IMG/VR virus record: IMGVR_UViG_3300047321_000298 | Span: 160,001 to 224,000 of that record | Reading direction: 5' to 3' (one strand) | DNA length: 64,000 nucleotides | Origin: a virus | Taxonomy: Duplodnaviria > Caudoviricetes | Shown: piece by piece, positions 16,080 through 54,305 of the stretch | How positions within the stretch are numbered: position 1 is the first letter of the stretch | Layout: each line of letters starts with the position of its first letter | Position numbers and translations under genes: made by a program | The notes under the pieces: model-generated | Database searches by the model: none | What the model was told of the DNA's origin: nothing | Seen by the model: only the letters and a program-made list of their open reading frames with translations

Positions 16080-16082
16080 TCT

Positions 16083-16586
16083 ATGACCTTCATCCAGCGT
16101 CTACTGGCAACAGCAGACGGGGAAGAGGATCAGGGGCCACTGGCTGACACTGAATATTGGGCAAAACGCGGCGCAGGTTGTGTGCTAATGGCACAGTCTA
16201 CGCTGCGTTTTCTTTTGCCCATGCGCTCCGCACAGGTTTCCGAACCCCACACCTACGGCACGTGGGGTGGCGGAATCGACGGATCAGAAAGTCCTGGGGC
16301 ATCCGTTCGTCGCGAGCTACGCGAAGAAGCCGGTTATGTCGGTGTTTCCTCCCTTTACCCGTTGCTCGTCTATCGCGATCTTGATCAAGGTCGCGTCTAT
16401 CACAATTTCCTCGCCGTCGTCCCTGAAGAGTTCGAGCCCGTTCTGAACTGGGAGACGGAACACGCAATATGGGTGCCATTTGACGAATTCCATCAACCTC
16501 TGCATCCGGGGTTGGAGTCCTTGCTGAAAGACCCGTATTCAATACGAACGATCAATTCGCATATGGAGCGGGCTTATCATGTATAG
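16083..16586 (+). CDS. Nudix hydrolase
   Basis: GGGIDGSESPGASVRRELREEAG Nudix box; N-terminus MTFIQRLLATA. Confidence 0.9.
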   Translation: MTFIQRLLATADGEEDQGPLADTEYWAKRGAGCVLMAQSTLRFLLPMRSAQVSEPHTYGTWGGGIDGSESPGASVRRELREEAGYVGVSSLYPLLVYRDLDQGRVYHNFLAVVPEEFEPVLNWETEHAIWVPFDEFHQPLHPGLESLLKDPYSIRTINSHMERAYHV

Positions 16587-16784
16587 GATACATTGGCAGT
16601 GGGTTGTAATTAATGGCGCAGTATCAACGGCCGATATGTTCGTCACGGTATTTTCGCTCATTGTCATCTCACAATGCATTCCGTGTTTTGCGATTCAGCT
16701 TGTTTCGTCGCTGTTTATCCGACAGCCCTACGAACACTGCCTGAGAGCTAAACGCCGGTCCCGTTATATCCAAAGGGTGGCGAC

Positions 16785-17291
16785 ATGAATGCAGCGCACA
16801 GACTTTTAGCTACCGCCATTCATCCGGAAGTTCAGCATATGGTGGATACAACGCTCAAGATGCTAAAGCGGAAGTTTCCGAAAGTCCCCAAAAAGCTGAA
16901 GGTTGTTTTTGAAAGGCGGGTGGGCGCTACGTTCGATCCGTGGGACTGGGAACTCAAGATGTCTGACTACGGGCTCGATCAGCCGCTGCACGTGGTAGAT
17001 AAAGAGGAAGATCAGGCTCAAGGCCCCGGAACCCTCCAGTACGGTCTGGAGGGCACCCTAATCCACGAATTCGGGCACGCGGTCAACGCAACGATCATCA
17101 AGCTCCACAGGCAGGACGATGACGCTCTGGGCGCATGGCAGCAGACGAAGCATGAATTGGAGCAAAAGCTAGGACACCCATCGGCCTACGCGAAGAAAAA
17201 CAATAGCGAGTGGTTTGCTGAACAGTTCCTGTACGAGATGAAGGGCCACGGGCATGCGCTGCTCGATGCAATCCAAGAGTGGAGCAAATAA
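16785..17291 (+). CDS. HExxH zincin-like metallopeptidase with leader peptide
   Basis: MNAAHRLLATA; LIHEFGHAV and SAYAKKNNSEWFAE. Confidence 0.75.
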   Translation: MNAAHRLLATAIHPEVQHMVDTTLKMLKRKFPKVPKKLKVVFERRVGATFDPWDWELKMSDYGLDQPLHVVDKEEDQAQGPGTLQYGLEGTLIHEFGHAVNATIIKLHRQDDDALGAWQQTKHELEQKLGHPSAYAKKNNSEWFAEQFLYEMKGHGHALLDAIQEWSK

Positions 17292-17878
17292 TGAAGATAC
17301 ACGCAGCGCAACGATTGCTCGGCTCCGCGTGGCAGGGGCACTTCAAGCTGGAGCTACCGGACGCCGTACGCGAAGAAATCCACGACATCATGAACAAGCT
17401 GTCCGCAGATTTCCCCACGCTGGCACATATCAACATCGAAGCTGGCGATCCGGAGTGGATGGAGAATATTCTCGCAACGAAGAGTCTGACGGCGCTGTAC
17501 CTGAACGCTCATTATTTTCAGGACCCCGAAAAGCTGCGTGTGCATTTCGAGAACTGGAAGGGTTTGCAGGTTGAACCAACGCTGACGGGCACGATTATCC
17601 ACGAGTGCGGACACATTCTGGCCAATCAGGTGCTGCAAAAAGCGGGCGCGCGTAAATTCAATAACGTACTAAAGAAACACCTGAGTGATCTTAACGGCAT
17701 CTGGAATTATGAGAGTCCCTCGTCCTACGGCCAGGAGAACACCTCAGAATTTCTCGCTGAAGCGTTCGTTGCACATTATCTCGGCAAACACGCGTGGGAC
17801 CCGATAGGTGAGTTCGGAACAATGTCTATGGCAACCAGCAATGCAGTCTGGACAGCCATGCGCAAACTTTTGAAATAG
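17291..17878 (+). CDS. HExxH zincin-like metallopeptidase with leader peptide
   Basis: TAATG coupling; MKIHAAQRLLGSA; IIHECGHIL and SSYGQENTSEFLAEAF. Confidence 0.75.
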   Translation: MKIHAAQRLLGSAWQGHFKLELPDAVREEIHDIMNKLSADFPTLAHINIEAGDPEWMENILATKSLTALYLNAHYFQDPEKLRVHFENWKGLQVEPTLTGTIIHECGHILANQVLQKAGARKFNNVLKKHLSDLNGIWNYESPSSYGQENTSEFLAEAFVAHYLGKHAWDPIGEFGTMSMATSNAVWTAMRKLLK

Positions 17879-17887
17879 GAGATTAGC

Positions 17888-18283
17888 TTGACTACAGGAA
17901 TCAATGCGGCGCATCGGCTAATCGCAGCCTCTGCTGAAGATGCGATACGCGAAGCAATCAACAACGCACCCAACCAGCACATCGGCAAGCCGTTCCCTGT
18001 CGTCACTCACTTCAACGGCGTGACGGTCCCCTTTATGGCCTACATCACGCGTATCGCTAACTCTGCGGAGCAGATGCGCGGGTCTTTCACCAAGGTCACT
18101 CTGACAACGGTGAAATGGGGCTTGCTGATCAAGGGTCATCCAAAGTGCTGGATTGCGGCGCACTACATACTGGATCAAAAGAACCGGCTGAAGGAAAGCG
18201 GCTTACCGTCGCGTATCGAAGACCACGAAGCCGAAAAATTCTTCCACGACTGCGGTGTTCCGGTTCCTCCCCATCTCCAGTAA
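17888..18283 (+). CDS. hypothetical protein with leader peptide
   Basis: TTG start, RBS aggag; MTTGINAAHRLIAAS. Confidence 0.7.
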   Translation: MTTGINAAHRLIAASAEDAIREAINNAPNQHIGKPFPVVTHFNGVTVPFMAYITRIANSAEQMRGSFTKVTLTTVKWGLLIKGHPKCWIAAHYILDQKNRLKESGLPSRIEDHEAEKFFHDCGVPVPPHLQ

Positions 18284-18318
18284 ATAAAAAGTAGGTACAC
18301 AAAAACTGGGGTGGCAGA

Positions 18319-18765
18319 GTGGCAAAGCAGGCTGATGAAGATCGCATGGCTATGGACATCGCGTATCTGGCGGCTGAACGGTCTCATGATCCTAAGCATG
18401 GAGTCGGGTGTGCAATTGTGACACCCGACCACATGATTACGCTGGGCTGGAACGGGATGCCTCAAGGTATGGACAACCAGATGCGCGAGCCGCGTCTCGT
18501 GCGAACCGCTTGTGGCTGTCTGCATTTCCAGGACAAGACCAAGCCGGAAGTCATGCATGCCGAGTTCAACGCTCTATCGAAGTTCGTCGGATCGACAGCT
18601 TCCACAGAAAACGCAAAACTCTACACGACGTTGAGCCCGTGTCTCCCGTGCGCGATATTCGCACATCGAGCCAAGATCGAACGCGTGATCTACGACCAGG
18701 TGTACCTGGACGGGGCAGGAATTGAATTTCTGCTTGAACGGGGAATAGTAGTCACGAGGATTTGA
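18319..18765 (+). CDS. dCMP deaminase
   Basis: HAEFNAL and TLSPCLPCA zinc motifs; GWNGMP. Confidence 0.92.
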   Translation: MAKQADEDRMAMDIAYLAAERSHDPKHGVGCAIVTPDHMITLGWNGMPQGMDNQMREPRLVRTACGCLHFQDKTKPEVMHAEFNALSKFVGSTASTENAKLYTTLSPCLPCAIFAHRAKIERVIYDQVYLDGAGIEFLLERGIVVTRI

Positions 18766-18768
18766 TCA

Positions 18769-19068
18769 ATGGGTGGGTATGTATTTGACGGGATAGGTTC
18801 AGCAGCGAGAGAAGCACAACGACTCGAAGCGTGGACAGCGGTTAGAGAGGGGCTCCACGGCATCAACGGACAGTGGTTGACCAACTACCATGAGCAGTCG
18901 GTGACGTTCAGGCACAGGAGGCGAGGGCACAACGTAAGGGTAACGCTAGCTGGCGAGGTCTACACTGACCTGAAGTTGCGCGCAGGAGCGTACAAATCGA
19001 ACGTTCACAAGTCTGATCTGAAGTCGGCGCTGATCTACACCAGGCAATTTCTCGAAGAGCACGTATGA
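18769..19068 (+). CDS. hypothetical protein
   Basis: ORF followed by terminator. Confidence 0.6.
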   Translation: MGGYVFDGIGSAAREAQRLEAWTAVREGLHGINGQWLTNYHEQSVTFRHRRRGHNVRVTLAGEVYTDLKLRAGAYKSNVHKSDLKSALIYTRQFLEEHV

Positions 19069-19071
19069 ACG

Positions 19072-19096
19072 AAGCCCGCCATAGAGCGGGCTTTTT
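19072..19096 (+). terminator. intrinsic terminator
   Basis: aagcccgc-N6-gcgggctt-ttt. Confidence 0.75.
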
Positions 19097-19141
19097 CATT
19101 TCAATTTCATAGCATCGACTACAAATTAGTGAGGTGCCACA

Positions 19142-20389
19142 GTGCCCTACGTTGATCGCTCAAATTCCAGAATAATGCCTGCAAACTCGCGCACCGCCGA
19201 CGTTGCAGAAAAGGCGATCCAGGAAATTATCCCGGTGCAGCAGCGTCGTTACTACGATAGCTTTCGCGTGCAAGGCATACAGTGCATCCATTATTCGCGA
19301 CTCACCTCCGGACGCAAGTGCAACTGTCAATCTTCGGCAAAACAGTTGAATGGTCTGCTCGATAAAAGCGGTAAGGCGAGCACCGGAACCATCAACCAGT
19401 TGTTGACCGGCAACCTCGAATTCAACGTCACTCCGTACAACTTCGATCAGAAGAGGCTCCCCGGAGTAACGAGCGCCCAGACTTCTCCGCAGGCACCAGC
19501 AAACAAGAATCAGGGGGTGTTCGACATCGCGACTGCGTCCGACGATATCCCGTTTGCTGACCTGATCAAAGGGACGCACGGCATGGGCGACAACGGTCCA
19601 GTCGAAAACACGACGATTGATGAACTCGTGGGTGACTGGGACCCTTCGATCATGGGCTTCTCCGACGTTGCGTGCCCGATCTGTTTCGGTACCGGCTTCG
19701 TATCCGGTTTCTCACCGTTTCACGGTCACCGTCAGGTGCTGGCCGTGCCCGATGTTCAGTTGCTGGCTGGCTCTGACATCGACACGCTCAAGCGCCCATT
19801 CACAGCACAGACACCCGGCTTCAACGTCGTCGTGATACTGCCCGCTGGAGCCATTGGAATTGACGTGTTCCGCGTCTGGAATATGGCGAACCCCGTGAAC
19901 AATGTGCAGATGTCGGTTGACGGTACGCCTCTCACTTCAGAGGCACAGTTGATGCAGTACTGCAACGGCAAACCACATCTGTTGCGCTTCACGGGGCCGA
20001 ACGGTCAACCGTTCGAATTCACGCACCTCGAAATACAGTTCCAGTTGACTACAGAATCTGTGTACTTCGAATTCCCCAAGCGCTCAACTTCGAACAACAC
20101 GGACCTTCTCGAACAGATGGAGCCGTTCAACATCATCGTTTCACCCAATCTCCCAACTCTCGAATCGATGGACATCATCGTTGAGCAGCAGCTAGGAAAA
20201 ATTCTGGTTGTTCAGAACACGAACCCTTGGCGTTCGCGTCAGCGAAACGTGCTGGGATGGGAAGCACAGGTGCGAGTGATCCAGCCCATGGAACTGTTCC
20301 GTATCTTGCCGATGCGTGGGCGGGTGATGAACAAAGACGCGACCACTAGGATGGTGCGGCCGAACTCTACAGGACCGCGCGTCACTTAA
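19142..20389 (+). CDS. virion structural protein, putative neck/head-closure protein
   Basis: KCNC...CPICFGTGFVSGF motif typical of large-myophage neck proteins; first gene after an AATTTCAT motif. Confidence 0.5.
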   Translation: MPYVDRSNSRIMPANSRTADVAEKAIQEIIPVQQRRYYDSFRVQGIQCIHYSRLTSGRKCNCQSSAKQLNGLLDKSGKASTGTINQLLTGNLEFNVTPYNFDQKRLPGVTSAQTSPQAPANKNQGVFDIATASDDIPFADLIKGTHGMGDNGPVENTTIDELVGDWDPSIMGFSDVACPICFGTGFVSGFSPFHGHRQVLAVPDVQLLAGSDIDTLKRPFTAQTPGFNVVVILPAGAIGIDVFRVWNMANPVNNVQMSVDGTPLTSEAQLMQYCNGKPHLLRFTGPNGQPFEFTHLEIQFQLTTESVYFEFPKRSTSNNTDLLEQMEPFNIIVSPNLPTLESMDIIVEQQLGKILVVQNTNPWRSRQRNVLGWEAQVRVIQPMELFRILPMRGRVMNKDATTRMVRPNSTGPRVT

Positions 20390-20398
20390 GGACGATAT

Positions 20399-21202
20399 AT
20401 GGAAGCAGCAAAAAGACTGGCAGCATCGGAAAAATCATGTTCGATGGAACTACCGCGTTTCCGTTACATGGACGACGTGACGCGGTATCTGTCGAACATG
20501 CGGTCAGATATCGAAGACTCTGAGAATCTAATCAGGGTTACACAGAAGGCGCTGGCGTCGCTCACCAAAGCAAAGATCGAAGCACAAAAGATCGACCCGG
20601 AAATCAAGAAGAAAGTCGTGCCGTCCGTGTCAAAGCTCCAGTCACAGTATGGCCTGATTGAAGACCTCTACGAGAAGCACCGGACACTGGAATCCGTCGA
20701 GTCGCAGATCACGCTGCAGTTTCCCGTGCGCAAGGGCGAGGTCTACGAGCGGACAACTGCGACGCTGCGTGAACTGAAGAAGAAAGTGGAAACACAGTTG
20801 CGGACGGTTCTAGATTTCCTTCGCGACATCTCGAACAAGCACGAGCCCAAGTCTTTCGCGAAATATCGACAGGCGGTGATTCAGGAAATTCAGGAGCGGC
20901 TGGAATTCCGCGACTCCGAGCAGTATCTGTATGTGTCCACTGCCGACTCTGACCTGATTTTCACCTCGTACTTCCTGTTGAATGACGTGCTGACAGAGGA
21001 CAGGCGGAAGGTTCCGAACCTGTACGTATCTATTCAGTGGGTGGTTGGTACAGGCGTCTTCACGCATCTGTCCAACGAGTTCGAACTCCCCGAAAGTCTG
21101 ACACACGAGCCGGGTACCGAGTGCAAGACGATGGCGGAGACGGTCACCTCGCTTTCGAACCTACTCAGCGCAGAAGGCTTCTTCAATAAACAAGGTAAAT
21201 GA
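20399..21202 (+). CDS. hypothetical late protein with shortened leader
   Basis: MEAAKRLAASE. Confidence 0.65.
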   Translation: MEAAKRLAASEKSCSMELPRFRYMDDVTRYLSNMRSDIEDSENLIRVTQKALASLTKAKIEAQKIDPEIKKKVVPSVSKLQSQYGLIEDLYEKHRTLESVESQITLQFPVRKGEVYERTTATLRELKKKVETQLRTVLDFLRDISNKHEPKSFAKYRQAVIQEIQERLEFRDSEQYLYVSTADSDLIFTSYFLLNDVLTEDRRKVPNLYVSIQWVVGTGVFTHLSNEFELPESLTHEPGTECKTMAETVTSLSNLLSAEGFFNKQGK

Positions 21203-31470: not shown

Positions 31471-32391
31471 ATGGCAAAAATCCCACAGGCGTTTGCAAAC
31501 GCACTCTCAAAGCAGAAAGCAGCACCCACCGTCTACGTCCCGCAGAAACCAGACGCGACGATGGAAGACATGATGGATTCCCATTCGGTCGGCACGATGT
31601 CTCAGGGTGTAGAGACATTCGACGCTGAGCGGGAACCCGGAAAAATTCAGCAAATGAATAACCCGGACGGTGAAGAGCGCGGCAAGATGGATTTCGAAAC
31701 CTGGCTGCCATTCGCAGCTAAGGTCTACAAGATCAGCCCGCGTATCGAAGACTACATCATCGTCAACACGCTGATCTGTCCTTCAGACATTCCGAACCGA
31801 AACGGTATTGCGTTCCCCGCGACCGAACTCGGACGTTTTCTCCCACCGCCGATGAATCGCATGGTTTACAAGGCGTGGGCCGGATGTCCCGTGCATCTGG
31901 AGCATGACAACGAAGTGCACGAAAAAGCGTACGGCGTGATTCTTGACGCAGCCTTGATGAAGGTTGCGGGTTTCGGTGGCGGAAAGCTCTGGAAGGTTAT
32001 GGGGTTGCTCGCAATCGATAAAAACAAGAATCCCGACATCGCTCAGCAAGTTCTCACACGAAAAATCAATACGTATTCGATGGGTGCACTGGTCGAGTCA
32101 TTTACGTGTGGGTATTGCGGCGCTGAATGCGATTCCCGTTTCACTTGCGGTCACATCTCTTCTACAAAGAACGTCAACTGGAAGAAATACAGAGACTTTG
32201 ACGGTTCTACACATCTCGCCTTTCTGAATGCGCACTCAATCTCTCCAATCGAATGCTCGATTGTGAAAGACCCTGCGTGGGCTCCTGCGCTTTCCGACAC
32301 AGTCTATGACCCGTGGGCGCAAATTTCACAGGACACCAGTTCGGAAGTGTCGGATGCGTTGAGCGGCAAAGGTGCTACGCGCACTCTCTAG
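31471..32391 (+). CDS. prohead (capsid maturation) protease
   Basis: VHLEHD and YSMG putative catalytic His/Ser motifs, CGYC Zn ribbon, ECSIVKDPA; upstream of scaffold and capsid. Confidence 0.8.
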   Translation: MAKIPQAFANALSKQKAAPTVYVPQKPDATMEDMMDSHSVGTMSQGVETFDAEREPGKIQQMNNPDGEERGKMDFETWLPFAAKVYKISPRIEDYIIVNTLICPSDIPNRNGIAFPATELGRFLPPPMNRMVYKAWAGCPVHLEHDNEVHEKAYGVILDAALMKVAGFGGGKLWKVMGLLAIDKNKNPDIAQQVLTRKINTYSMGALVESFTCGYCGAECDSRFTCGHISSTKNVNWKKYRDFDGSTHLAFLNAHSISPIECSIVKDPAWAPALSDTVYDPWAQISQDTSSEVSDALSGKGATRTL

Positions 32392-34963: not shown

Positions 34964-36049
34964 ATGCGTAATAAGGTTGAAGTCCGCGCGGCTAAGACGC
35001 CGATGGTTGCGGCATCGGAATATAAGTTTGCGAACTCAGGTGAGCGCGCAATCGGTTCGAACGGTGAAATCAACGCGTCGTCAAAGCGCGACCTGATCAA
35101 CCGCCAGATGGAATTCCTCGCAGCTTCGAGCCGTCGTGAAGTTGTGGCTGACCCGGTGTTCGCTGCTGCTGAAACGAACGAAAAGCTGCACAAGGAACTG
35201 ATCCAGGCAGCGTTCAACGACCGTGAAGCTCACCGCGTTCTGGGTGAACGTATGGCTGATTCGCTGTACATCACTGCGAACCGTCAAGGCTTCATGCGCA
35301 AGTACACGACCAAGATCACGGTCGAACAAGGCGCAATCGTTCGCTTCCCGCTGAAGAACAAGAACGTGACGGCTGTGTGGTCAACCAGCCCGACCAAGAT
35401 TCAGTCACAGATCACACGTGACAAGTGGTTCACTCCGCCGGAACTGCAGGTTGTGACCCGCCCGTTCATTCCGATGAACGAAATCAACCAGTCGGCCGGT
35501 GACGTGCTTCAAGAGAAATACGTCGAAGCAACCGAAGCCATCATGGTGTCGGAAGACCGCCTCTGGTACCAACTGGTCAACGAAATCGTTGGCGTGGACA
35601 ATCCGCTGTCGATCATCTCCGGTCAGTTGACCCCGTACACGTTTGCTCAGGTGATGACGAACGTGACGCGTTGGGGCCTGAAGGCACCGCACGTGCTCAT
35701 CGCTACCGACATCTACCAGGACATCATCGGCAACTCGGACTTCTTCACGGCAATCGATCCGGTTGCACGTCACGAACTCCTGCTGACCGGCGAACTGGGC
35801 GTTCTCTACGGTTGCACGATCACTTCGGATGCATACCGTCACCCGGAACACAAGGTGCTGAACCAAGGTGAGTTCTTCGTGATTTCGGATGCACTGAATC
35901 ACGGCGCTTACTCGGATCGCGGTGGCCTGCAATCGCAGCCTATCGATATCTCGGTGGAACGCATTCCGGGCCGTGGCTGGGTGATGTTCGAATCGCTGGC
36001 AGTCAGCGTGTCGAACAGCCGCTCGGTTGCTAAGGGCTACCGCATCTAA
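34964..36049 (+). CDS. major capsid protein
   Basis: 361 aa, strongly biased codon use, HK97-like pattern (VQEKYVEATEAIMVSEDRLW, LLTGELGVLYGCTITSD); protease-scaffold-decoration-MCP order. Confidence 0.8.
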   Translation: MRNKVEVRAAKTPMVAASEYKFANSGERAIGSNGEINASSKRDLINRQMEFLAASSRREVVADPVFAAAETNEKLHKELIQAAFNDREAHRVLGERMADSLYITANRQGFMRKYTTKITVEQGAIVRFPLKNKNVTAVWSTSPTKIQSQITRDKWFTPPELQVVTRPFIPMNEINQSAGDVLQEKYVEATEAIMVSEDRLWYQLVNEIVGVDNPLSIISGQLTPYTFAQVMTNVTRWGLKAPHVLIATDIYQDIIGNSDFFTAIDPVARHELLLTGELGVLYGCTITSDAYRHPEHKVLNQGEFFVISDALNHGAYSDRGGLQSQPIDISVERIPGRGWVMFESLAVSVSNSRSVAKGYRI

Positions 36050-39615: not shown

Positions 39616-40065
39616 ATGAAGCTTAAAGCATCAACCAGATTGCTCGCGGATTCTCCCGTCATCGCGCCGTCTGATTCGTTCAGAGACGAGAACAAAGAGC
39701 AGTTGAAGGATCGCCAGTCTGAGAGCCGGAAGACCGAAAAGACGGATAGCGGCAGCCCTTCAACCGAAGCCTCATCTACTGCGGTTTCTCAGGGTTCGCA
39801 GGCACTGCCTCAAACCGAAAGCACCTATGCGCGGCTCATCCAATCCGGAGCAGAGGACGACCCTCTCACGATGGATATGGAGGACGCGTGTACGGCTGGC
39901 GACACATCGGACGGTTACGTACCGAACTCAGAAACGGGTTTCGAGCTAGAGGGTCCGGACGTGGATGAGAACTACCTGAACGTAAGGGGCTGCTCGACAG
40001 AGGACGAACTGCTGGCTGACGCGGACCCGACCCTGTGGAACAACGCCGAACAGCCGATGGGGTGA
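39616..40065 (+). CDS. acidic protein with leader peptide
   Basis: MKLKASTRLLADS; RBS gagg. Confidence 0.7.
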   Translation: MKLKASTRLLADSPVIAPSDSFRDENKEQLKDRQSESRKTEKTDSGSPSTEASSTAVSQGSQALPQTESTYARLIQSGAEDDPLTMDMEDACTAGDTSDGYVPNSETGFELEGPDVDENYLNVRGCSTEDELLADADPTLWNNAEQPMG

Positions 40066-40068
40066 GGG

Positions 40069-40365
40069 ATGAAACTCAACGCGATGTACCGGCTACTCGC
40101 ACTTTCTGCGCTGGATCATGCGCGAAACGTGGAGAAGCTATTCGACACCCTGAGGTCACGCCATATGAGCGTTGTCCTCAACAAGACCGATTACACCATC
40201 GGATTCAGATCGGACACCGAACAAGTGCTCCGGGCGCTAGGGCTCATGGGCTTTCGCAAAAACGGCACCAGCCACAACGGAATGATGCTCTCAGACGGGC
40301 ATCAGGAAATCCGTTTGTTTGAACCACGCGAAGGCTGGCCCCCAATCGCACAGCTTCTACATTAA
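40069..40365 (+). CDS. small protein with leader peptide
   Basis: MKLNAMYRLLALS. Confidence 0.7.
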   Translation: MKLNAMYRLLALSALDHARNVEKLFDTLRSRHMSVVLNKTDYTIGFRSDTEQVLRALGLMGFRKNGTSHNGMMLSDGHQEIRLFEPREGWPPIAQLLH

Positions 40366-40377
40366 AGGAATTCAGTT

Positions 40378-40884
40378 ATGTCACGGACAAGTTTGTTTGA
40401 TGTCGAGAGCGTAGCCGATCCGGCGCAGTCGTGGAACTTCGATATGTTCCTGCCAGCGATTCCCGGTTCGTCAGATACGCGAGCTTTGACGTGGAAGTGC
40501 ATGACCTCAGCGCTGCCAGGTTTCGGCTTCGACAACGTTGAGGTTCCACTTCACGGAATCGTCCTGAACTATGCGGGCCGCAAGACGTTCACGCATACGT
40601 TCAACTCAACATTCATGGAAGCATCAGATTGGTCAACGCGTTCGCAGTTCTACGCGTGGTCAGAATCAATGCGTTCGTGGATTAACAACAGCGGAACATT
40701 CGCATCAGCCTACAAGGTCAACGCTCAACTCGTTGTGTACAACGATCTGCCACAGGTCTCGCGCACGATCAACGTGATGGGTATGTGGCCTGCTGAAGTT
40801 GCAGACGTTGAGCTGGACGGCGGCGCTTCGAACCTCATTTCACTCAATATCACTTGGCGCTTCGACTATCTCCAAGATACCTGA
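40378..40884 (+). CDS. tail tube protein
   Basis: 168 aa; DPAQSWNFD, NYAGRKTF, Y-K..YNDLP..TINVMGMWP T4-gp19-like pattern. Confidence 0.85.
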   Translation: MSRTSLFDVESVADPAQSWNFDMFLPAIPGSSDTRALTWKCMTSALPGFGFDNVEVPLHGIVLNYAGRKTFTHTFNSTFMEASDWSTRSQFYAWSESMRSWINNSGTFASAYKVNAQLVVYNDLPQVSRTINVMGMWPAEVADVELDGGASNLISLNITWRFDYLQDT

Positions 40885-40904
40885 TGCGCGACTCCGGAGT
40901 CTAT

Positions 40905-42035
40905 ATGTTGAAGATCAATGCTGCATCTAGACTTCTGGTGACTGCTGAAGGGGAGTGGTTTTATTCACTCCCCGACGAGATGCAAAAGCAGTACATAGAA
41001 GAACATCCGGAATCCAAGTACGCCAAGGACTACAAGCCCAAGGGCGATAACCCGTCGATTCCGGGTCCCCAGACTGCACCAAACGACCCGCAATCGCCTC
41101 AAAATCAGCCCAAAGTGCAAACCCCAATGGGAGCACCGGGCAGGCTCCAGAGACCGCCAGCGCAGTTGGTTAAGCCCAGGCCGCAGTTGCCAAAGAAGAC
41201 TGAAGAAGCGCTGAAACATGTGCCGAAACCTGTTGGAAAGGCACTTAAAAACGGTGGCATGAAGCCCAAGTCGAAAGAGCGGATGGAGATTGCAGAGAAG
41301 CTGAAGGCGAAGACTCCACGTCTTGCGCGCGGCATGCTTAAAGACACGATGGGTGCTGCAAAAGGTTTGGCATCAACCTACAACATCGTCGTCAAGGGCA
41401 AGCCTGAACAGGGCGACTTCAAGAAGGTCGCGTCGATGTTCGGGACGATTCTTGGATCATCGGTGATGGCCGCTGCAATTGGGACCACGGGTCCAGTTGG
41501 TTTCCTCGCGTTCATGGCAGTCAAGCATATGGCTGCACCTGCTCTGTACCGAATGGCACAGAAAGCGTTCCATCCGCCTCCCGAACCTGACTCTTATGGC
41601 TACTGGGCAGATGAAGACACGTGGGTCGATATGCCTAAGGCGGAATGGGAAAAGCTGACCGACAAGGAAGCTGACCGCCGATTCAAGGAAGGCCAGAAAA
41701 AGAAGGCGCTAGAGAAACACGGTCACGGCTATTGGGACAAAGGTCAGTGGCATGCGCAGCCGCGCGCAGAGTGGGAACAGGATTTCAACAAGCGCGGGCC
41801 TGGGAAGCGTTCAGACATCGGCAAGCAGGGTGCGTCAGTGGTCACTGCCACGGACGAGGAAAAGCAGATGACCCAGCTTCTGGAGACGCTGTTCGATTTT
41901 GTGGAGAACGGAGATATCCCGAAGGAAGCTATCGAGCGTGCAGTCTACGAAATGGCTGATGCACAGATCGCTAGGGACCGTGAGCACGAGAAAGAGCAGC
42001 TTCAGAGGCAAGAGCACGAGAATTCTCGCGATTAA
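40905..42035 (+). CDS. protein with leader peptide, WF..HP motif and central hydrophobic/Gly-rich segment
   Basis: RBS ggag before ATG 40905; MLKINAASRLLVTAEGEWFYSLPDEMQKQYIEEHPES. Confidence 0.75.
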   Translation: MLKINAASRLLVTAEGEWFYSLPDEMQKQYIEEHPESKYAKDYKPKGDNPSIPGPQTAPNDPQSPQNQPKVQTPMGAPGRLQRPPAQLVKPRPQLPKKTEEALKHVPKPVGKALKNGGMKPKSKERMEIAEKLKAKTPRLARGMLKDTMGAAKGLASTYNIVVKGKPEQGDFKKVASMFGTILGSSVMAAAIGTTGPVGFLAFMAVKHMAAPALYRMAQKAFHPPPEPDSYGYWADEDTWVDMPKAEWEKLTDKEADRRFKEGQKKKALEKHGHGYWDKGQWHAQPRAEWEQDFNKRGPGKRSDIGKQGASVVTATDEEKQMTQLLETLFDFVENGDIPKEAIERAVYEMADAQIARDREHEKEQLQRQEHENSRD

Positions 42036-42123: not shown

Positions 42124-42870
42124 ATGGATACGAATACTCTGTCAATCACCGACTTCGAAATGAAGACTCCGACCATCGCGAAGGTCGTCATTTCGTACAC
42201 GGGTGGTTTCAACAAGGAGAAGGTTCGCGCCTCTCTTCTGAAGATGCTGGACAACCGCGCTGCACCGGTTGAAGATTCCTTCCGCCAGGTGCGTGCGGGC
42301 GTCGCTGTCGGCTTCCTGCGGGCTAACCGCGAAGTGCGTGTTGTGGACCCGAAGGAACTTCGCGCATCGTATCGCGTCATGGGTTCATCGAACATCATGA
42401 TGAGCGAAGTCGATAACTCGCTGTGGGAAGTGAAGCAAGGCAAGGGCGGTACGTTCCTCGCTCGCCACGGTCAGGAAGACCTGTCGGAACTGGTCGAAAG
42501 CTCAACGCAGCGCCGCACCGATGTCCCGGGCATTCGCCACCTGCAACTGGCGAAGGCCGTATCGGGCGAGTTCGTGGCATTCACCTCGAAGTCTGGCGAC
42601 ATGGACTACGGTTTCGTTGTTGCTTCGAACTCGGAAAAGGTTAAGGTCGTTTCGACCACGACTCAGATGCCCGCCGTCGCTTCGTACGATATGGTGTCGT
42701 TCATCGGCCGCGCTCCGATTCCGAAGTCGTTCGCTCAGGACATGGTGAAGGCTGGCATCAGCCGCGAAGACAAGTCGCAGGCCATCGAGTACTGGAAAAA
42801 GCTGTACTCATACAACCCGGCCTACCTGCAAATGGTGATCGATCAGGTGAACGAGGGCACAGTCGCCTAA
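42124..42870 (+). CDS. probable highly expressed late/virion protein of unknown function
   Basis: Biased codons like the MCP; AATTTCAT upstream; terminator downstream. Confidence 0.6.
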   Translation: MDTNTLSITDFEMKTPTIAKVVISYTGGFNKEKVRASLLKMLDNRAAPVEDSFRQVRAGVAVGFLRANREVRVVDPKELRASYRVMGSSNIMMSEVDNSLWEVKQGKGGTFLARHGQEDLSELVESSTQRRTDVPGIRHLQLAKAVSGEFVAFTSKSGDMDYGFVVASNSEKVKVVSTTTQMPAVASYDMVSFIGRAPIPKSFAQDMVKAGISREDKSQAIEYWKKLYSYNPAYLQMVIDQVNEGTVA

Positions 42871-42882
42871 CTGAGTTCAGAG

Positions 42883-42909
42883 AAAGCCCGCGTTTATCGT
42901 GGGCTTTTT
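42883..42909 (+). terminator. intrinsic terminator
   Basis: aaagccc...gggcttttt. Confidence 0.65.
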
Positions 42910-42929
42910 CTTTATCTAGGAAGAAAGAT

Positions 42930-43259
42930 ATGGAACTGAATGCAGCCACGCGACTGCTCGCTGATTGGTGGTCCGACTTAAGTCCGGAAGAGCAGGAGAA
43001 GTACATCAAGGACCATCCGCATTCTGACAAGGCAATGGAGAAGCGGAAGCACGCCTACCACAACCCAGAAGTGGAAATCTCCGATTCCCGCTACTCGAAC
43101 GGTAGTAAGATCGTACGCGTAAAATCTGAGACTGGTTATAAGACTAAAGGCCACGACGTTGCAGAAGAACTCAAGGGCCGCTGGTCGAACCGCGAGAAGG
43201 GCTACATCATGAGTCCGACCAAAGCCCTTAAGTTCCAGAAGATGATGGCTCAACAATAA
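42930..43259 (+). CDS. leader-array gene 1 (with WW..HP motif)
   Basis: MELNAATRLLADWWSDLSPEEQEKYIKDHPHS. Confidence 0.8.
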   Translation: MELNAATRLLADWWSDLSPEEQEKYIKDHPHSDKAMEKRKHAYHNPEVEISDSRYSNGSKIVRVKSETGYKTKGHDVAEELKGRWSNREKGYIMSPTKALKFQKMMAQQ

Positions 43260-43266
43260 GGCGATC

Positions 43267-43737
43267 ATGGAACTCAATGCAGGCTCCCGGCTGATCGAAG
43301 CCGCAACAGAGAAGCGACTTATTGGCGAATACGTGACGAAGAACGGGGAACCGGCAATCACGATCTATCAGGAAATCAATGATAAAGGTCGTGTTCAGTA
43401 TCGCCCCGACATCATGCACGACAAGTTCAGTTGCCCGCCGTTTCATGACCGTTCCGACTATCGCGAAGTCTATACGAAGGTTACTGAGGAACTGAAGCGC
43501 AAGCGCGGATGGAAGGCAATCAAGCCGTTGCCCGAACACGAACCGTCAACCCATGTGGAACCGACACACTACGAATTCCACGTGGAGTTTCTGGACGAGA
43601 ATGGGCGTATGGGCAAGCTCGATCACGCGGTGAAGGCGCGCAATCGCTTTGACGCGTTTGCTGAGTTGCTCCAGGGATTGAAACGAAGCGGCGGGATGGA
43701 AGTCGTTCACCGAATCACATGCACCGCTAGTAAATAG
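43267..43737 (+). CDS. leader-array gene 2
   Basis: MELNAGSRLIEAA. Confidence 0.8.
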   Translation: MELNAGSRLIEAATEKRLIGEYVTKNGEPAITIYQEINDKGRVQYRPDIMHDKFSCPPFHDRSDYREVYTKVTEELKRKRGWKAIKPLPEHEPSTHVEPTHYEFHVEFLDENGRMGKLDHAVKARNRFDAFAELLQGLKRSGGMEVVHRITCTASK

Positions 43738-43761
43738 ACACCGAATCGACTAGGGAATAAC

Positions 43762-44046
43762 ATGGAACTTAATGCGAGCACGCGACTGTACGCGGCAAAC
43801 CTCACAGAGAAGGCAGCGGAATTCCGCGCGCTGTTGAAACAGAAGGGTCTCAAGGTGCGCACCCGCGTCGCACCGGGTGGCGGTCAGGTGCAGGTGATCG
43901 CGCCGTCCTACGCAGAGCCGTTCACCGACGAGCAGAAGCTGACCATCAACCAGTTGGCCGTAGACCTCGGATATGTTGGTGTTAGGGGCACTCCTATCAA
44001 CGTGCACGGTGGCGATTCCCATCAACTCAACTTCTATCCGGGCTGA
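43762..44046 (+). CDS. leader-array gene 3
   Basis: MELNASTRLYAAN. Confidence 0.8.
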   Translation: MELNASTRLYAANLTEKAAEFRALLKQKGLKVRTRVAPGGGQVQVIAPSYAEPFTDEQKLTINQLAVDLGYVGVRGTPINVHGGDSHQLNFYPG

Positions 44047-44054
44047 GTAACCAC

Positions 44055-44516
44055 ATGTCACCACTCGAAAACGTAAAGCGCCTGTATCTCGATTATCTCA
44101 ATGCAGGGTTCAAGAAAGACGTGATCGCACGAAAGCTGAAAAGTCAGTTTCCGGGTGCGAAGTTCACGTTCAAGGGTGCAACGCTGTACGTTGCATTTGG
44201 CCTCAATCCAGAGCAGAAGGTGTTAGGTATGGAACTCAACGCAGCGCAGCGCTTGCAAGTCACAGCCTCCGACTATCACAAGCTGAAAGAACTCGCGAAA
44301 AAGTTCGAGCAGCAATTGAAGAAGGAGGGCGCTCCGGGCGTCGAAGTGACGTTCATCAGCGATGATGAAATCAACATCTTCAGCGAAGACAAGCACGCAT
44401 TTGACAAGGCGAAGCAAGTCCTCAAGAAGGTGCCGGGTCTAACCTTCAGCAAGGAAGACGTGGACAACGATCCCGATTTCGACGGCCCGCAATATCACGC
44501 CTGGTACAAGTTCTGA
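44055..44516 (+). CDS. leader-array gene 4; leader at in-frame internal ATG 44229
   Basis: Internal MELNAAQRLQVTA preceded by ttaggt. Confidence 0.7.
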   Translation: MSPLENVKRLYLDYLNAGFKKDVIARKLKSQFPGAKFTFKGATLYVAFGLNPEQKVLGMELNAAQRLQVTASDYHKLKELAKKFEQQLKKEGAPGVEVTFISDDEINIFSEDKHAFDKAKQVLKKVPGLTFSKEDVDNDPDFDGPQYHAWYKF

Positions 44517-44581
44517 TCACTTGCACAATACGTCAATAGGAGTAAGATGCTTCTGTTGACGTATTCATTGCGGAGAAGAAC

Positions 44582-44893
44582 ATGGAACTCAACGCAGCGC
44601 AACGGCTGACAGCAACTTCGGATCAGGACAACGTCTCGAAGGCTCTGATTGATCACAACTTCAAGCTGCCTTTGTTTGAGGTTGCTGTTGACGGGGCACA
44701 TGGCACTGTCTACGCGAAGCAGGTCGCCTCCCAAATCCGCACGGGCAACGTGAACATTTTTCTCAAGATGCAGGGCGAGAAGGATGTCCGCATTGGTGCT
44801 TACACAGACCACCCGCGCAACACGGTTTCCGATCTGAAAAGCTACGTGAAGGAAGAACTGCTCGAAGAAGGTACGATCACCCGATCATTGTAA
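44582..44893 (+). CDS. leader-array gene 5
   Basis: MELNAAQRLTATS; RBS ggag. Confidence 0.8.
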   Translation: MELNAAQRLTATSDQDNVSKALIDHNFKLPLFEVAVDGAHGTVYAKQVASQIRTGNVNIFLKMQGEKDVRIGAYTDHPRNTVSDLKSYVKEELLEEGTITRSL

Positions 44894-44902
44894 GAGGAAC
44901 TC

Positions 44903-45160
44903 ATGGAACTGAACGCAGCTACGCGGCTGATTGCGTCGGACATCGAAGAACGTCTAAAGGAAAAGATGTCGCGGTATGGCCACGCGACTTTTACTGGCAG
45001 GCGCGACTTCGATGCCATCGAGAAGCTGGAGCGCGAGGGAAAGCTCCAGGACTATGCCGTGTCTCGCGATGTATACAACGCTAACGGTCCCGAATTTAAG
45101 TCGCAGTGGAAGTCCCCGCGCTCAAAGACCGCCTACGAAATCACCGTGAGTCCGAAATGA
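44903..45160 (+). CDS. leader-array gene 6
   Basis: MELNAATRLIASD; RBS gagg. Confidence 0.8.
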   Translation: MELNAATRLIASDIEERLKEKMSRYGHATFTGRRDFDAIEKLEREGKLQDYAVSRDVYNANGPEFKSQWKSPRSKTAYEITVSPK

Positions 45161-45351
45161 TAGAACTGAACGCGGCGTACAGACTGCTCGCACTGAGCTA
45201 TGACGGCAACATCGGAATGATGGAGATGGTCAAGTTCTATAAGGTGGCGACACCGGAGCAGAAGAGCCTGATGCAATCCTTCCTCAGTAGCAAACAGTTT
45301 GCCAAGGGCTGGGAACTGCTCCAGGACGTGACCGGTGTCAAACTCAAATAA
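45157..45351 (+). CDS. leader-array gene 7
   Basis: ATGA coupling; MIELNAAYRLLALS. Confidence 0.8.
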   Translation: MIELNAAYRLLALSYDGNIGMMEMVKFYKVATPEQKSLMQSFLSSKQFAKGWELLQDVTGVKLK

Positions 45352-45372
45352 CCTCAAACACTGTACCAATCT

Positions 45373-45648
45373 ATGACGACACTTAACGCATCATCTCGGC
45401 TGACTGCGGGTGCCCCTCACGACCGGCACCTGGAAAAGATCGTCAACGCGATCAACCACAGCGGCATCAAGGCCGCACACATCAATTCGGAGGGTCAGGA
45501 AGTCGTGGTGAGTACCATGAAACCCTTCAACGTTCACATGCTTGGGAAGTTCGCTGAGCAAATGCACGTCGATCCGCAGCACATCAGCATTGAACTCGGT
45601 CACGGTGTCATCGAACTCCGTATTCCTGAGTTCGTAATCGGCAAGTAG
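45373..45648 (+). CDS. leader-array gene 8
   Basis: MTTLNASSRLTAG. Confidence 0.8.
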   Translation: MTTLNASSRLTAGAPHDRHLEKIVNAINHSGIKAAHINSEGQEVVVSTMKPFNVHMLGKFAEQMHVDPQHISIELGHGVIELRIPEFVIGK

Positions 45649-45656
45649 GTAGAATA

Positions 45657-45908
45657 ATGACGGGACTCAACGCAGCCACCCGCCTCGTGGCATCCGAGCC
45701 ACGACTGACGCGTCAGGAACTGTTTAAACGGGCCCGCGATAAGGGGTACAAGGTGACGGATAGGGGAACGCGCGTTTTCGTTACCCTGAACCGGTACACG
45801 TCGCTTGTGTTCTACGAAGACGGTTCGATCTTCTTCGCAGACATGGACCTATCGGCAGCAAAGAAAATCCCGCTGAAAGAAGCCTTTCGGATTTTGAAAC
45901 TCCTGTGA
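45657..45908 (+). CDS. leader-array gene 9
   Basis: MTGLNAATRLVASE. Confidence 0.8.
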   Translation: MTGLNAATRLVASEPRLTRQELFKRARDKGYKVTDRGTRVFVTLNRYTSLVFYEDGSIFFADMDLSAAKKIPLKEAFRILKLL

Positions 45909-45915
45909 GAAACCC

Positions 45916-46143
45916 ATGACTGAACTCAACGCAGCCACCCGCCTCGTGGCGACGGAAACCGAAAAGCCAGGTCATGGCGAAGTCGGCTCGCACGAGTATG
46001 AGAACTACGGCAAATACTTTCGTAGAGGTGATCTGGTGAAAGATAACTACGGCAAGTTACATACAGTGCGGGAGCATCGCGGCCCACAAGTATTTTTTCA
46101 GGACGGGGGCTACGCCCACCCGTCGAAACTGCATCTAGCCTGA
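45916..46143 (+). CDS. leader-array gene 10
   Basis: MTELNAATRLVATE. Confidence 0.8.
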   Translation: MTELNAATRLVATETEKPGHGEVGSHEYENYGKYFRRGDLVKDNYGKLHTVREHRGPQVFFQDGGYAHPSKLHLA

Positions 46144-46146
46144 AAG

Positions 46147-46178
46147 AAGCCCCGTTGAGAAATCTTCGGGGCTTTTTT
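46147..46178 (+). terminator. intrinsic terminator closing the array
   Basis: aagccccg-N12-cggggctt-tttt. Confidence 0.75.
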
Positions 46179-47687
46179 GTTTCTGGTGCTTGCACAAATC
46201 GTCAATAACTGTATAATTGGTCATGTTGGATTCGAAACGAACCAGGAGCAGGAAATGAACGACCTTGACATCATGCTTGAAGTGAACACGATGACACCGG
46301 CAAAGACCGCACGGCTCACCGCTGACTTCACGCGAGCAGCGGGCGCGGCACCCATTCTCATGAACGTACGGATGATCAGCCCCGCTCTCGATATGACGGT
46401 CGGCTTTGACTCTGAACTCGCAGCCTTCAAGCTCGCATACTACTTTCGCGAACACGCTCAATCCCGCGTTCGCGTGGAGGAAGCGAGCGTACCAGGCGTT
46501 TTTCTCGTGATTCTGACTCCGAAGGCTTAAAACAATGAACAGCGAACGAATTGCGCAGATCGCGCGTGAACTCAAACCCGCTTACGAGCCGGTGCTCGCT
46601 GCGTGGCGTGCTATCGACTCGAACGCGGGCTCAGGCGTCGAGCAGATGCAGGCGCTCGCTAACGCGTGCGCAGCGTACAACGCGAAGTATCTGGAGCAAG
46701 TGCCTGTGCTCGCGTCGGTTACGCCCAACAGCGAGCAGACGTTGCGCCAGGCGTTCTACCCGAAGGACGAATATTCGACGTACCCAACGCCTGAATTTCT
46801 GATGAACGTCGCGAATTACAACTCGTTCAACGACAAGCTCTGGCGCAAGGGTTCGGGATTCTTACGCGAACCGTCGAACAACTTCACTTTCTAGGGAGCT
46901 TTATGGGCACACGGGCAAACAAGAATTCACCACCGACCGTCCCAGAAGGGTACCGTGTGTATCAAACACTGGTAGGAACATGGCGATGGTCGAAGGGCGT
47001 GTTCGGCACCTCAAACTGGACTGATGGCGAGAATCTCCCGAACGAAGATGCAGCCATCCGCGACGCAATTCGAGACGCGTCGGCCAAAGATACGTATTGA
47101 CGTTTTGTGCAGCCCCCGTATAATGAGTCTTGTGGTTGAGACGGAAACGATACGGGGGTTTGATATGAACGCAGCGCAACTGTTCCAGGACATCGAGACT
47201 GGTGCTCTCACGGAGGTGGTGGAAGCAGCAAACACCTTCTACCATGAAGTACGCGGACTGAACGCGCGTCAGCAGTTCTTCATCTACCCGGACGGCCTTA
47301 TTTACGCGCTCACCTGCTGTGATGCCAGCTATGAGGTCGTGCGTCTGGTGGACGATAACGAAGCGATTTTCATGCATCGCTACCCGCAATATTTCGAACA
47401 GGTCTGATCATGACAAAGTATTTTGTTGAGAACGAAAACACGCTGGTCTATCTGATTGAAAACGGTAGCTATGGCATTCTTCGCGGCAGTGTACTGCGAG
47501 GCGGCCGTAACGATCTGGATGGCTGGTTTCCTGGCGCATGCGTTGGTGCTTTGCGCCCCGCAACGCGGGAGGATTTCGACACGTACCGCGTGATGCTTCC
47601 ACGCGATTTCGTAGACCCTGCGTGAGATAGTTGTTGACGTTTTGTGCAGAAGGAGTACAATCGTTTCTGTGACTGGGAGAAACGATT

Positions 47688-53715: not shown

Positions 53716-54039
53716 CTATCGGTCTTGGCGAGTGTCCCAGACGCGCAAAAGAGCTATCGCAGTCGGTTCCTCAGAGTACGGGGGTAGAACTTCATAGTGC
53801 AATTCATAGCGCCCCGCCAGACATACCCAGCGATGAACTTCGCGTGCGGGAGGTCCATCGTAGCCGTCAAGCTCTTCACCGAGTCGGTGGAAGTGATCTT
53901 GTCCAAGCCGATCTGCTTCATCGAGTAGAGCATTGACGATACGTCGGGCCGCTGCTCCATCGTTGAATTTTTTCACGTGGTCAGCGATCAGCGCCAGGTC
54001 GGACATGGCTTTAGAAGTAGGTAGGACCTTGACCTTCAC
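53716..54039 (-). CDS. ParE/RelE-family toxin
   Basis: VLPTSKAMSDLALIADH...AARRIVNAL...GRYELHY...LLRVWDTRQD. Confidence 0.85.
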   Translation of the reverse strand: MKVKVLPTSKAMSDLALIADHVKKFNDGAAARRIVNALLDEADRLGQDHFHRLGEELDGYDGPPAREVHRWVCLAGRYELHYEVLPPYSEEPTAIALLRVWDTRQDR

Positions 54040-54305
54040 GCTTCGGGCACCGGCTGTTCGTTATCGGTTCCAATGCTGTCGGCCCAGACGCGTGCCTGAT
54101 CCATCGGGACGAATCGGCCCGCAGTCACATCGTCCAGTCCTTCCTGAATCAATCGACGCTTCTCCGCTTCTCGTGAGAGAAACTGGACCAGCGCTTTCTT
54201 GACGATCCACTGACGCGGCCGGTCAAGCAGCGCGGAGAGGGCGTCCACTTCCTGCGCTAGTTCGACCGGCACCTGAGCCGTGAGGGTTCGAGTTTCAGCA
54301 GTCAC
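54036..54305 (-). CDS. CopG/RHH antitoxin
   Basis: TLTAQVPVELAQEVDALSALLDRPRQWIVKKAL; GTGA overlap with the toxin. Confidence 0.85.
   Translation of the reverse strand: MTAETRTLTAQVPVELAQEVDALSALLDRPRQWIVKKALVQFLSREAEKRRLIQEGLDDVTAGRFVPMDQARVWADSIGTDNEQPVPEA

Follow-up and report, generated by a model that had tools for sequence, protein, structure and literature searches.

A hypervariable array of leader-tagged cassette genes in a jumbo myophage resembles the internal-protein loci of T-even phages

The virion gene block of an uncultured jumbo phage, known from a 245.5-kb viral metagenome genome with direct terminal repeats (IMG/VR record IMGVR_UViG_3300047321_000298), encompasses a tandem array of ten small genes that share a short peptide leader, or tag, and are otherwise unrelated. 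We analyzed a stretch of 64,000 nucleotides from this genome (bases 160001–224000 of the record), hereafter the window, in which the array occupies positions 42930–46143. The array is hypervariable; the tag is maintained by selection on the peptide, is confined to the virion block, and occurs on effector-type enzymes as well as inside giant proteins of the polyvalent type. In our assessment, the tag is probably a capsid-targeting one, analogous to the capsid-targeting sequence (CTS) and the internal-protein loci of phage T4, in an unrelated lineage and with an unrelated sequence.

The array and its genomic setting

At the DNA level, the nearest cultured relatives of the window phage are the Burkholderia jumbo phages BcepSauron and BcepSaruman (72–73% over one gene), followed by phiRSL1, Motura, and BCSR5, and the phage is a jumbo myophage of the phiRSL1/BcepSauron type. 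It shares with the cultured relatives the gene order portal (21563), head protease (31471), major head protein (34964), tail sheath (37627), tail tube (40378), and a conserved gene of 248 amino acids (aa), which the array follows in the window at the 3' end of the late virion operon.

31471..32391, + strand: head maturation protease (phrog_18299, E 2.4e-86), the candidate leader-removing enzyme
34964..36049, + strand: major head protein (phrog_2522, E 9e-99)
42124..42870, + strand: conserved 248-aa gene (phrog_17573, function unknown), the synteny anchor
42880..42915, + strand: intrinsic terminator between the 248-aa gene, which it closes, and the array (13-bp hairpin at 42880–42910, −21.6 kcal/mol, z −6.8, with a U-rich tail)
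46144..46182, + strand: intrinsic terminator ending the array (hairpin at 46144–46177, −19.7 kcal/mol, z −5.2, followed by the U run UUUUUUGUUU)

An earlier note on this DNA, made from the letters alone, described ten consecutive, co-oriented genes between two terminators, each with an ELNAxxRL-type leader, and this description was borne out. All ten open reading frames (ORFs; 64–156 aa, + strand) were verified with their first-assigned coordinates, and all ten contain the 11-residue pattern M-x-L-N-A-x-x-R-L-x-A, often followed by [A/S/T]-x-[E/D]. The genes are separated by 7–24 nt, except for one 65-nt gap and one 4-nt overlap (ATGA), and every one of them, including the 58-aa part that precedes the internal leader of g4, displays coding-type GC periodicity. 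Each product is a single small domain, only g4 having two parts. Both flanking hairpins fold far better than shuffled sequences, none of which equalled either; a simple consensus promoter and terminator scan missed both, so that their confirmation comes from sequence reading and folding. Because the second terminator is followed by a sigma-70-like promoter (46190–46218) and then by a repeated 22-nt 5' element (to 46249), the array is the last unit of the late virion block.

42930..43259, + strand: g1, 109 aa; leader MELNAATRLLA and a WWxxLxxxxQxxYxxxHPxS motif, then a unique C-terminal part
43267..43737, + strand: g2, 156 aa; leader MELNAGSRLIE and a two-domain, beta-rich payload
43762..44046, + strand: g3, 94 aa; leader MELNASTRLYA
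44055..44516, + strand: g4, 153 aa; 58-aa N-terminal piece, internal leader MELNAAQRLQV (residues 59–69, from 44229), and payload P4
44582..44893, + strand: g5, 103 aa; leader MELNAAQRLTA
44903..45160, + strand: g6, 85 aa; leader MELNAATRLIA
45157..45351, + strand: g7, 64 aa; leader MIELNAAYRLLA and a helical payload; its ATG overlaps the g6 stop codon (ATGA)
45373..45648, + strand: g8, 91 aa; leader MTTLNASSRLTA
45657..45908, + strand: g9, 83 aa; leader MTGLNAATRLVA-SE and an alpha-beta5-alpha payload
45916..46143, + strand: g10, 75 aa; leader MTELNAATRLVA-TE

Turnover of cassettes among relatives

Contigs of relatives with the same flanks were found via homologues of g9 and g7, and their arrays were taken from manual tables; automatic cassette clustering missed some genes. 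In the following rows, given 5' to 3', capitals denote families absent from the window, P4 is the payload of g4, g4N is the 58-aa N-terminal piece of g4, and the percentages refer to the anchor gene.

Window: g1 g2 g3 g4 g5 g6 g7 g8 g9 g10
L059 (g1 onward), L058 and L060 (g2 onward), three samples: g1 g2 H A g3 g4 G g7 g8 g9 g10
L051 (97%): g2 A B [g4N+X] [Y+P4] C d g6 g7 g1-like (leaderless gene) g9 P4-paralogue
L052 (95%): F g2 g3 [g4N+Z] [Y+P4] G g7 g9
L061 (85%): G g3 g8 g4-like X g7
L062 (70%): G g8 … g7 g9
L016 (partial; 92%): F g2 …

The hypervariable cassette locus postulated in the earlier note is strongly supported by this comparison of the syntenic locus: cassettes are gained and lost, content differs even between near-identical strains, order changes among relatives with anchors 85–97% identical, and gene content is not identical across diverse relatives. 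In L058, L059, and L060, the proteins g1, g3, g4, g8, g9, and g10 are 100% identical to those of the window phage, and the array differs from that of the window by two added cassettes (H and A) and by the single gene G in place of g5 and g6; in L057, L058, and L059, the gene that replaces this pair encodes 94 aa. The most widely kept cassette is g2, with homologues in L003, L016, L051, L052, and L059 at 72–95%. The g1 cassette, found in L059, is absent at the same position in L051, L052, and L016; g3 is present in L052, L059, and L061 and absent in L051; g8 is present in L057 and L059 (100%), L061, and L062 and absent in L051 and L052. Homologues of g7 make up sixteen clusters, every one in relatives of the window phage, the sole homologue of g6 is in L051 (65%), g10 has homologues only in near-identical strains, and g5 is absent from all relatives compared. 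Further loci (L003, L008, L054, L055, L010, L011, and L015) differ again, and neither BcepSauron nor phiRSL1 has an array 3' of the anchor. Altogether, at least 25 cassette families occur across about a dozen loci, and the shared cassettes are 55–92% identical, compared with 95–98% for the flanking tube and anchor genes.

The 58-aa piece of g4 and the leader that follows it are kept in L051, L052, L057, and L059. In L051 and L052, this piece and leader continue into other sequences, and P4 belongs to the next gene. The leader of g4 is truly internal, because in L051 its Met is replaced by Ser; the earlier note had located it correctly inside the gene, but its description as an internal start is corrected by this replacement and by the conservation of the N-terminal piece together with the leader.

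Breakpoints between arrays lie at leader DNA or at cassette gene boundaries. Identity with L057 and L059 ends at 44608, the last base of the RL codons in the g5 leader, and restarts at 45155, at the start of g7, and the H-A insertion falls between 43726 and 43761, the base preceding the g3 start codon. In the comparison with L051, homology extends from the anchor through 29 nt of the first leader (break at 42958) and is followed by a different payload; in that with L052, the break is 20 nt into the g4 leader (44248). These positions imply that cassettes move as leader-plus-payload units. The short leader repeats plausibly serve as recombination joints; the leaders of g9 and g10 are 94% identical over 35 nt.

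Separately, three relatives encode, directly 3' of the 248-aa anchor and hence in the place of the array, leaderless proteins of about 250 aa (L004:10825-11586, L008:4375-5121, and L011:2130-2849), putative proteases by their papain-type CSPxxNQxxxGSC motif.

The leader across the genome and the lineage

Six-frame translation of the whole 245.5-kb genome yields 20 matches to [LIVM]N[AS]xxRL. Fifteen lie in plus-strand ORFs between 14.5 and 46.1 kb of the window, 14 of them at an ORF start and one inside g4, and ten of these 15 belong to the array; the other five of the 20 are scattered in non-coding frames. Chance does not account for this distribution. With looser variants included, there are 19 tagged genes, all inside a 31.6-kb virion block, and no confident copy of the tag was found in the other 214 kb of the genome.

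In this genome, a 230-kb relative (G001), BcepSauron, phiRSL1 (including ORF109, a Nudix protein, and ORFs 120, 123, 124, 127, and 133), and 14 metagenomic loci, taken together, we counted 104 distinct tagged proteins, with the consensus M-[KEQ]-[LI]-N-A-A-[TQS]-R-L-[LVI]-A-[TADS]-[EAS]. The tag goes unmentioned in the Matilda preprint, the FLC6 paper, and the jumbo-phage overview. It loosely resembles the LNLQFFA motif of L27/80alpha; Prp-type processing was nevertheless rejected, given that the genome encodes no Peptidase_Prp (PF04327).

In the array leaders, the codons of the fixed residues vary (CTG/CTC/CTT, AAT/AAC, CGA/CGG/CGC/AGA), and the 40-nt stretches that precede the genes are unrelated, so that selection acts on the peptide, not on the DNA. 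This observation bears on the possibility that the leader is mainly a DNA-level feature, either a repeat that serves as a recombination joint or a translation-initiation context, the peptide itself having no targeting role. The coincidence of the breakpoints of cassette gain, loss, and replacement with leader DNA, and the near identity of the g9 and g10 leaders, are what such a feature would produce. The peptide, however, is kept where the synonymous sites are free to vary and the upstream sequences differ, on single-copy core genes spread over 31 kb, in distant relatives that use other codons and leader variants, and inside large proteins, and we regard a purely DNA-level role as very unlikely.

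Tagged genes outside the array and the link to polyvalent proteins

Apart from the array, the tagged genes of the virion block form two groups.

14526..21202, + strand: six tagged genes adjoining the portal gene (starts at 14526, 16083, 16785, 17291, 17888, and 20399)
39616..42035, + strand: three tagged genes around the tail-tube gene (starts at 39616, 40069, and 40905/40908), conserved in relatives

Several of these genes encode recognizable enzymes: 14526 is a Zeta-toxin-like kinase (Zeta_toxin, E 4e-20), 16083, with a degenerate leader, a Nudix hydrolase (NUDIX, E 1.5e-13), and 16785 and 17291 are two ATLF-like zincins. Relatives add a tagged ART-PolyVal ADP-ribosyltransferase (ART) in L010 that passes the Pfam cut-off (E 1.4e-7), a tagged short-chain dehydrogenase (SDR) in L055 (E 9e-48), and, with a weak match, a GNAT-like case in L051. 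The tag is thus carried by members of enzyme families that usually lack it (Zeta_toxin, NUDIX, zincins, ART-PolyVal, and SDR), and the tagged genes taken as a whole do place polyvalent-type effector domains among the virion genes, namely Zeta_toxin, NUDIX, and zincins in the window and ART-PolyVal in L010.

The WWxxLxxxxQxxYxxxHPxS (WW/HP) motif follows the leader in three genes of the window, g1 (42930–43070), 14526 (14526–14666), and 40905 (40905–41048). It has no Pfam model and is at times repeated within a single protein. A profile of the tag plus WW/HP matched 618 clusters among 1.84 billion protein representatives, mostly at the N-terminus, in proteins of 45–2530 aa. Giant proteins with LPD1, HNH, RelA_SpoT, Zeta_toxin, 2H, TopoIB, and InPase domains contain internal copies; these giants belong to the class of polyvalent proteins, predicted to be packaged and injected (PMC5512222). 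BcepSauron gp075 (L001:6138-7868) contains three WW/HP motifs; a leader-like segment stands before the first, N-terminal one and before the second, internal one.

The location of the tagged genes can also be read in terms of the tail, the tag being a docking or loading peptide for accessory proteins on a tail or baseplate component, or for cargo in the contractile-tail lumen. Such leaders exist in extracellular contractile injection systems and Photorhabdus virulence cassettes, the payloads of which are loaded into the lumen of a contractile tail through N-terminal leaders, but the lumen of a phage tail is already filled by the tape measure protein. As this reading would have it, the array and the group of three are immediate neighbours of the sheath and tube genes, where the tail block ends on its 3' side; the group of six, in contrast, adjoins the portal, on the head side of the block. 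Moreover, the tagged bodies are enzymes of intracellular type (kinase, Nudix, zincin, and ART), not adhesins, and the tag recurs inside polyvalent-type proteins, which are predicted capsid cargo (PMC5512222), so that a tail function of the tag appears unlikely.

A structural role in the head is improbable as well. The tagged proteins would then be scaffold-type constituents of the prohead core that serve assembly or DNA condensation and are not injected, and the tag would be the protease propeptide of core proteins. T4 processes its core and internal proteins alike, and IPIII has an effect on head assembly (PMC9026906); here, none of the relatives examined lacks any of the tagged genes 20399, 39616, 40069, and 40905. 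The array members, in contrast, are dispensable at the strain level, being gained, lost, and replaced, they are mutually unrelated and not uniformly basic, and many tagged proteins are enzymes.

Several neighbouring proteins deserve mention in their own right. The window encodes, in the middle of the virion gene block (25907–30475, + strand), a SNF2-family helicase of 1522 aa (SNF2-rel_dom, E 5e-13, and Helicase_C) that lacks an LNAxxRL leader, has a counterpart in ORF129 of phiRSL1, and resembles the packaged P1 DarB-type helicase and polyvalent proteins. In phiRSL1, the place of the tagged Zeta-like kinase of the window is taken by a type IB topoisomerase (ORF108, L024:14562-16241), and a metagenomic topoisomerase IB (P0189, 1143 aa) contains the WW/HP module close to its N-terminus; together, they hint that a topoisomerase may be packaged in virions. 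Gene 40905–42035 (+ strand), like BcepSauron gp075, encodes a Pro/Lys-rich low-complexity region and a hydrophobic segment (GTILGSSVMAAAIGTTGPVGFLAFMAV), features that, as far as the sequence goes, would suit a membrane-inserting ejection protein.

The payloads

An all-against-all BLASTP comparison of the ten leader-trimmed payloads detected no pairwise similarity, in agreement with the complete divergence after the leader claimed in the earlier note; the sole exception to this unrelatedness is the WW/HP motif that g1 has in common with genes 14526 and 40905. Distant paralogues are found in relatives, g5 being 35% identical to family A and the g4 payload 30% to L051:10260. Scans of the ten payloads against Pfam and PHROG gave no match above the cut-offs, polyvalent-type effector domains included. 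The best rows below the cut-offs were phrog_12911 for g9 (E 7e-5, unknown function), CT0912-like_C for g4 (0.0012), DUF4222 for g10 (0.003), and HMG_box for g1 (0.025). A tblastn search with g1, g2, and g9 against 50,697 GenBank phage records produced no match, and, for g7, the ESM Atlas returned only generic helical neighbours.

For the two most widely kept cassettes, g2 and g9, AlphaFold (AF2) models were made. The g9 model (predicted local distance difference test score, pLDDT, 82) has an alpha-beta5-alpha topology, the g2 model (pLDDT 76) consists of two beta-rich domains, and in both the tag is a disordered, low-confidence appendage on a folded body (pLDDT below 50, residues 1–11 in g2). 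Because the payloads lack pairwise similarity and the predicted topologies of g2 and g9 differ, they are not diverged copies of one fold. Foldseek searches with the two models against PDB, BFVD, and AFDB clusters returned nothing at E ≤ 0.001 (best 0.007). In the wide VIA-align search, the best scores, Z 5.9 for g9 (SUD-C/frataxin-like) and Z 7.6 for the C-terminal domain of g2 (PurS/L18a-like beta-alpha-beta), are below the trustworthy level, as are the anti-defence rows for the latter domain (phi29 p56, Z 5.3; C-terminal domain of AcrIIA15, Z 4.6). The possibility that the payloads are basic DNA-binding proteins like the internal proteins of T4 was rejected as a general rule, their isoelectric points spanning 5.3–10.0.

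A cleavage-like motif and the head protease

The motif [ASTG][ASTG][ED] occurs no more than 8 residues after the RL in 35% of the tagged proteins; its rate in the remainder of these proteins is 5.6%, so that it is six-fold enriched after the tag. The end of the leader is resembled by the N-terminal region of the major head protein, ...PMVAASE/YKF (VAATE/YKF in phiRSL1), and the adjacent head protein carries STE/M (SAE/M in phiRSL1); these head-protein sites lie 15–19 residues from the N-termini. The head protease has 228 homologues with an invariant His145 and Ser203 and a Cys/His cluster. Co-folding of the protease (44-row alignment) with g9 (7 rows) gave a score of 0.00, which is evidence neither for nor against binding.

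In bacteria, short N-terminal peptides serve as recognition tags for proteases or chaperones, and the leader could by the same token specify another intracellular fate, such as chaperone or unfoldase recognition, timed degradation (as an N-degron), or recruitment to a replication or assembly compartment. We find such a fate quite improbable: the tag is limited to genes of the late virion block, it is associated with cargo of the polyvalent type, and the cleavage-like acidic motif enriched after it is shared with the major head protein.

A candidate capsid-targeting system

Four indirect lines of evidence, namely the confinement of the tag to virion genes, its grafting onto enzymes, its recurrence in polyvalent proteins, and the acidic motif, point to virion loading with processing. 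Each cassette consists of the 11-residue leader M-[E/K/Q]-[L/I]-N-A-A-x-R-L-x-A and, as its payload, one small domain that is autonomous. Under the proposed mechanism, in which packaging into the head, cleavage, injection, and the functions of the payloads are what we infer from these genes, the leader would steer proteins that are not otherwise related into the prohead during assembly, the head maturation protease would clip at least some of them, and the clipped cargo would exit with the DNA at infection. Cassettes are gained, lost, and swapped as units, so that the set of putative cargo differs even between strains, as expected for proteins engaged in an arms race with host defences. The head packaging proposed in the earlier note is accordingly plausible from context (virion-block confinement, enzymes of polyvalent type, and enrichment of the acidic motif).

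Several observations weigh against capsid targeting. The array and three other tagged genes have tail genes (sheath and tube), not head genes, as their neighbours. In g4 and BcepSauron gp075, the tag occurs internally, unlike the strictly N-terminal CTS of T4, although an internal position fits a processing site. The acidic motif is neither universal nor fixed in its distance from the tag, about two-thirds of the tagged proteins lacking it within 8 residues. The head protease matches no Pfam family, that of T4 gp21 included, so that its specificity cannot be read from family membership. Finally, the payloads are not basic as the T4 internal proteins are, and the structure searches with g2 and g9 matched no known anti-restriction-modification, anti-CRISPR, or DNA-mimic fold.

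The analogy to the internal-protein loci of T-even phages, drawn in the earlier note, is apt with respect to the short N-terminal tag, the unrelated small bodies, and the poor conservation between relatives (PMC9026906, PMC3012670). In T4, an N-terminal tag of 10–19 residues, the MKTYQEFIAE-like CTS, is present on IPI, IPII, IPIII, and Alt, an ART that is packaged through its N-terminal propeptide (PMC9026906, PMC5512222), and the window tag likewise sits on unrelated, mostly small proteins and, in the same lineage, on an ART. The T4 internal proteins are non-essential, like the strain-variable members of the array, the tagged sets of both systems are poorly conserved between related phages, and, whereas the T4 CTS ends at a prohead-protease site, about a third of the tagged proteins have a merely cleavage-like acidic motif soon after the tag. 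Conversely, LNAxxRLxA is unrelated to MKTYQEFIAE, the lineage is not T4-like, 19 genes are tagged instead of four, with ten in a single tandem array, the position of the acidic site varies, the tag is sometimes internal, and packaging is putative. The tag sequence, the lineage, and the scale set the system apart from that of T4, and the present case adds a link to polyvalent proteins and strain-level evidence of cassette exchange.

With polyvalent proteins, P1 Dar included (PMC5512222), the system overlaps in effector domain repertoire (ART-PolyVal, Zeta-type kinase, zincin peptidase, Nudix, InPase, RelA/SpoT, and SNF2 helicase) and in having its genes among virion genes, and giants of this kind contain the tag plus WW/HP module. 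Unlike polyvalent proteins, which combine several effector domains in one polypeptide, the cassettes encode separate small proteins, each with its own tag, and the ten array payloads match none of the described polyvalent domains. In phiKZ-like phages and SPN3US, as far as the abstracts of the reports go, many packaged proteins are processed by a prohead protease after Glu (PMC5694885, PMC10052503, PMC7411985). The system described here resembles these inner-body and ejection proteins in being candidate protease-processed cargo of a jumbo phage; the lineage differs, the propeptides in those phages are longer, without one shared 11-residue consensus, and a tandem cassette array with strain-level turnover is not described in the same abstracts.

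If the tag is indeed a packaging address, it would constitute a second, independent case of the T4 strategy of placing exchangeable proteins in the head, and a sequence rule would mark injected proteins, the first to meet host defences, straight from genomes, with 19 genes in this phage and hundreds of metagenome clusters. Given that the lineage has cultured members infecting Burkholderia and Ralstonia, the packaging idea is testable. Small free-standing cargo genes would then be tied to giant polyvalent proteins by a common joint, suggesting how such arsenals evolve, and a short transferable loading tag could, like the T4 CTS before it, help to package foreign proteins in phage particles. The strain-level turnover in itself shows a fast-evolving locus.

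A broader scenario, which we advance only tentatively and consider somewhat doubtful, is that LNAxxRLxA, optionally with WW/HP, is a portable virion-loading address that arose independently of the T4 CTS and serves a large clade of jumbo phages from soil and peat, most of them uncultured. This address would serve both the cassettes and, as a cut-and-release joint, the polyvalent proteins, and the array would represent polyvalent proteins split into exchangeable single-domain cargos, with the tag DNA as the recombination joint. Were the address portable in this sense, the at least 25 payload families would amount to a catalogue of new injected proteins for anti-defence or host takeover.

Repeated elements and other neighbours of the array

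The 22-nt element downstream of the array, GGAT(TC/GT)GAAACGAACCAGGAGC, has five copies in the window, against 0.01 expected by chance.

10035, 13193, 46228, 48292, and 50811, + strand: copies of the 22-nt element (sequence repeat)

Two of these sites, 10035 and 46228, were examined, and at both a start codon follows closely on the element, which a class of non-late genes may have as a common 5' leader. A sequence of about 40–55 nt located 3' of the array (47630–47685) recurs intergenically in L051, at 12072, 13248, and 13628, and may be a repeated regulatory element. A ParE-toxin/RelB-type pair is encoded a few kb 3' of the L052 array (L052:8798-9387), and the equivalent place in the window is occupied by small minus-strand genes (53716–54305).

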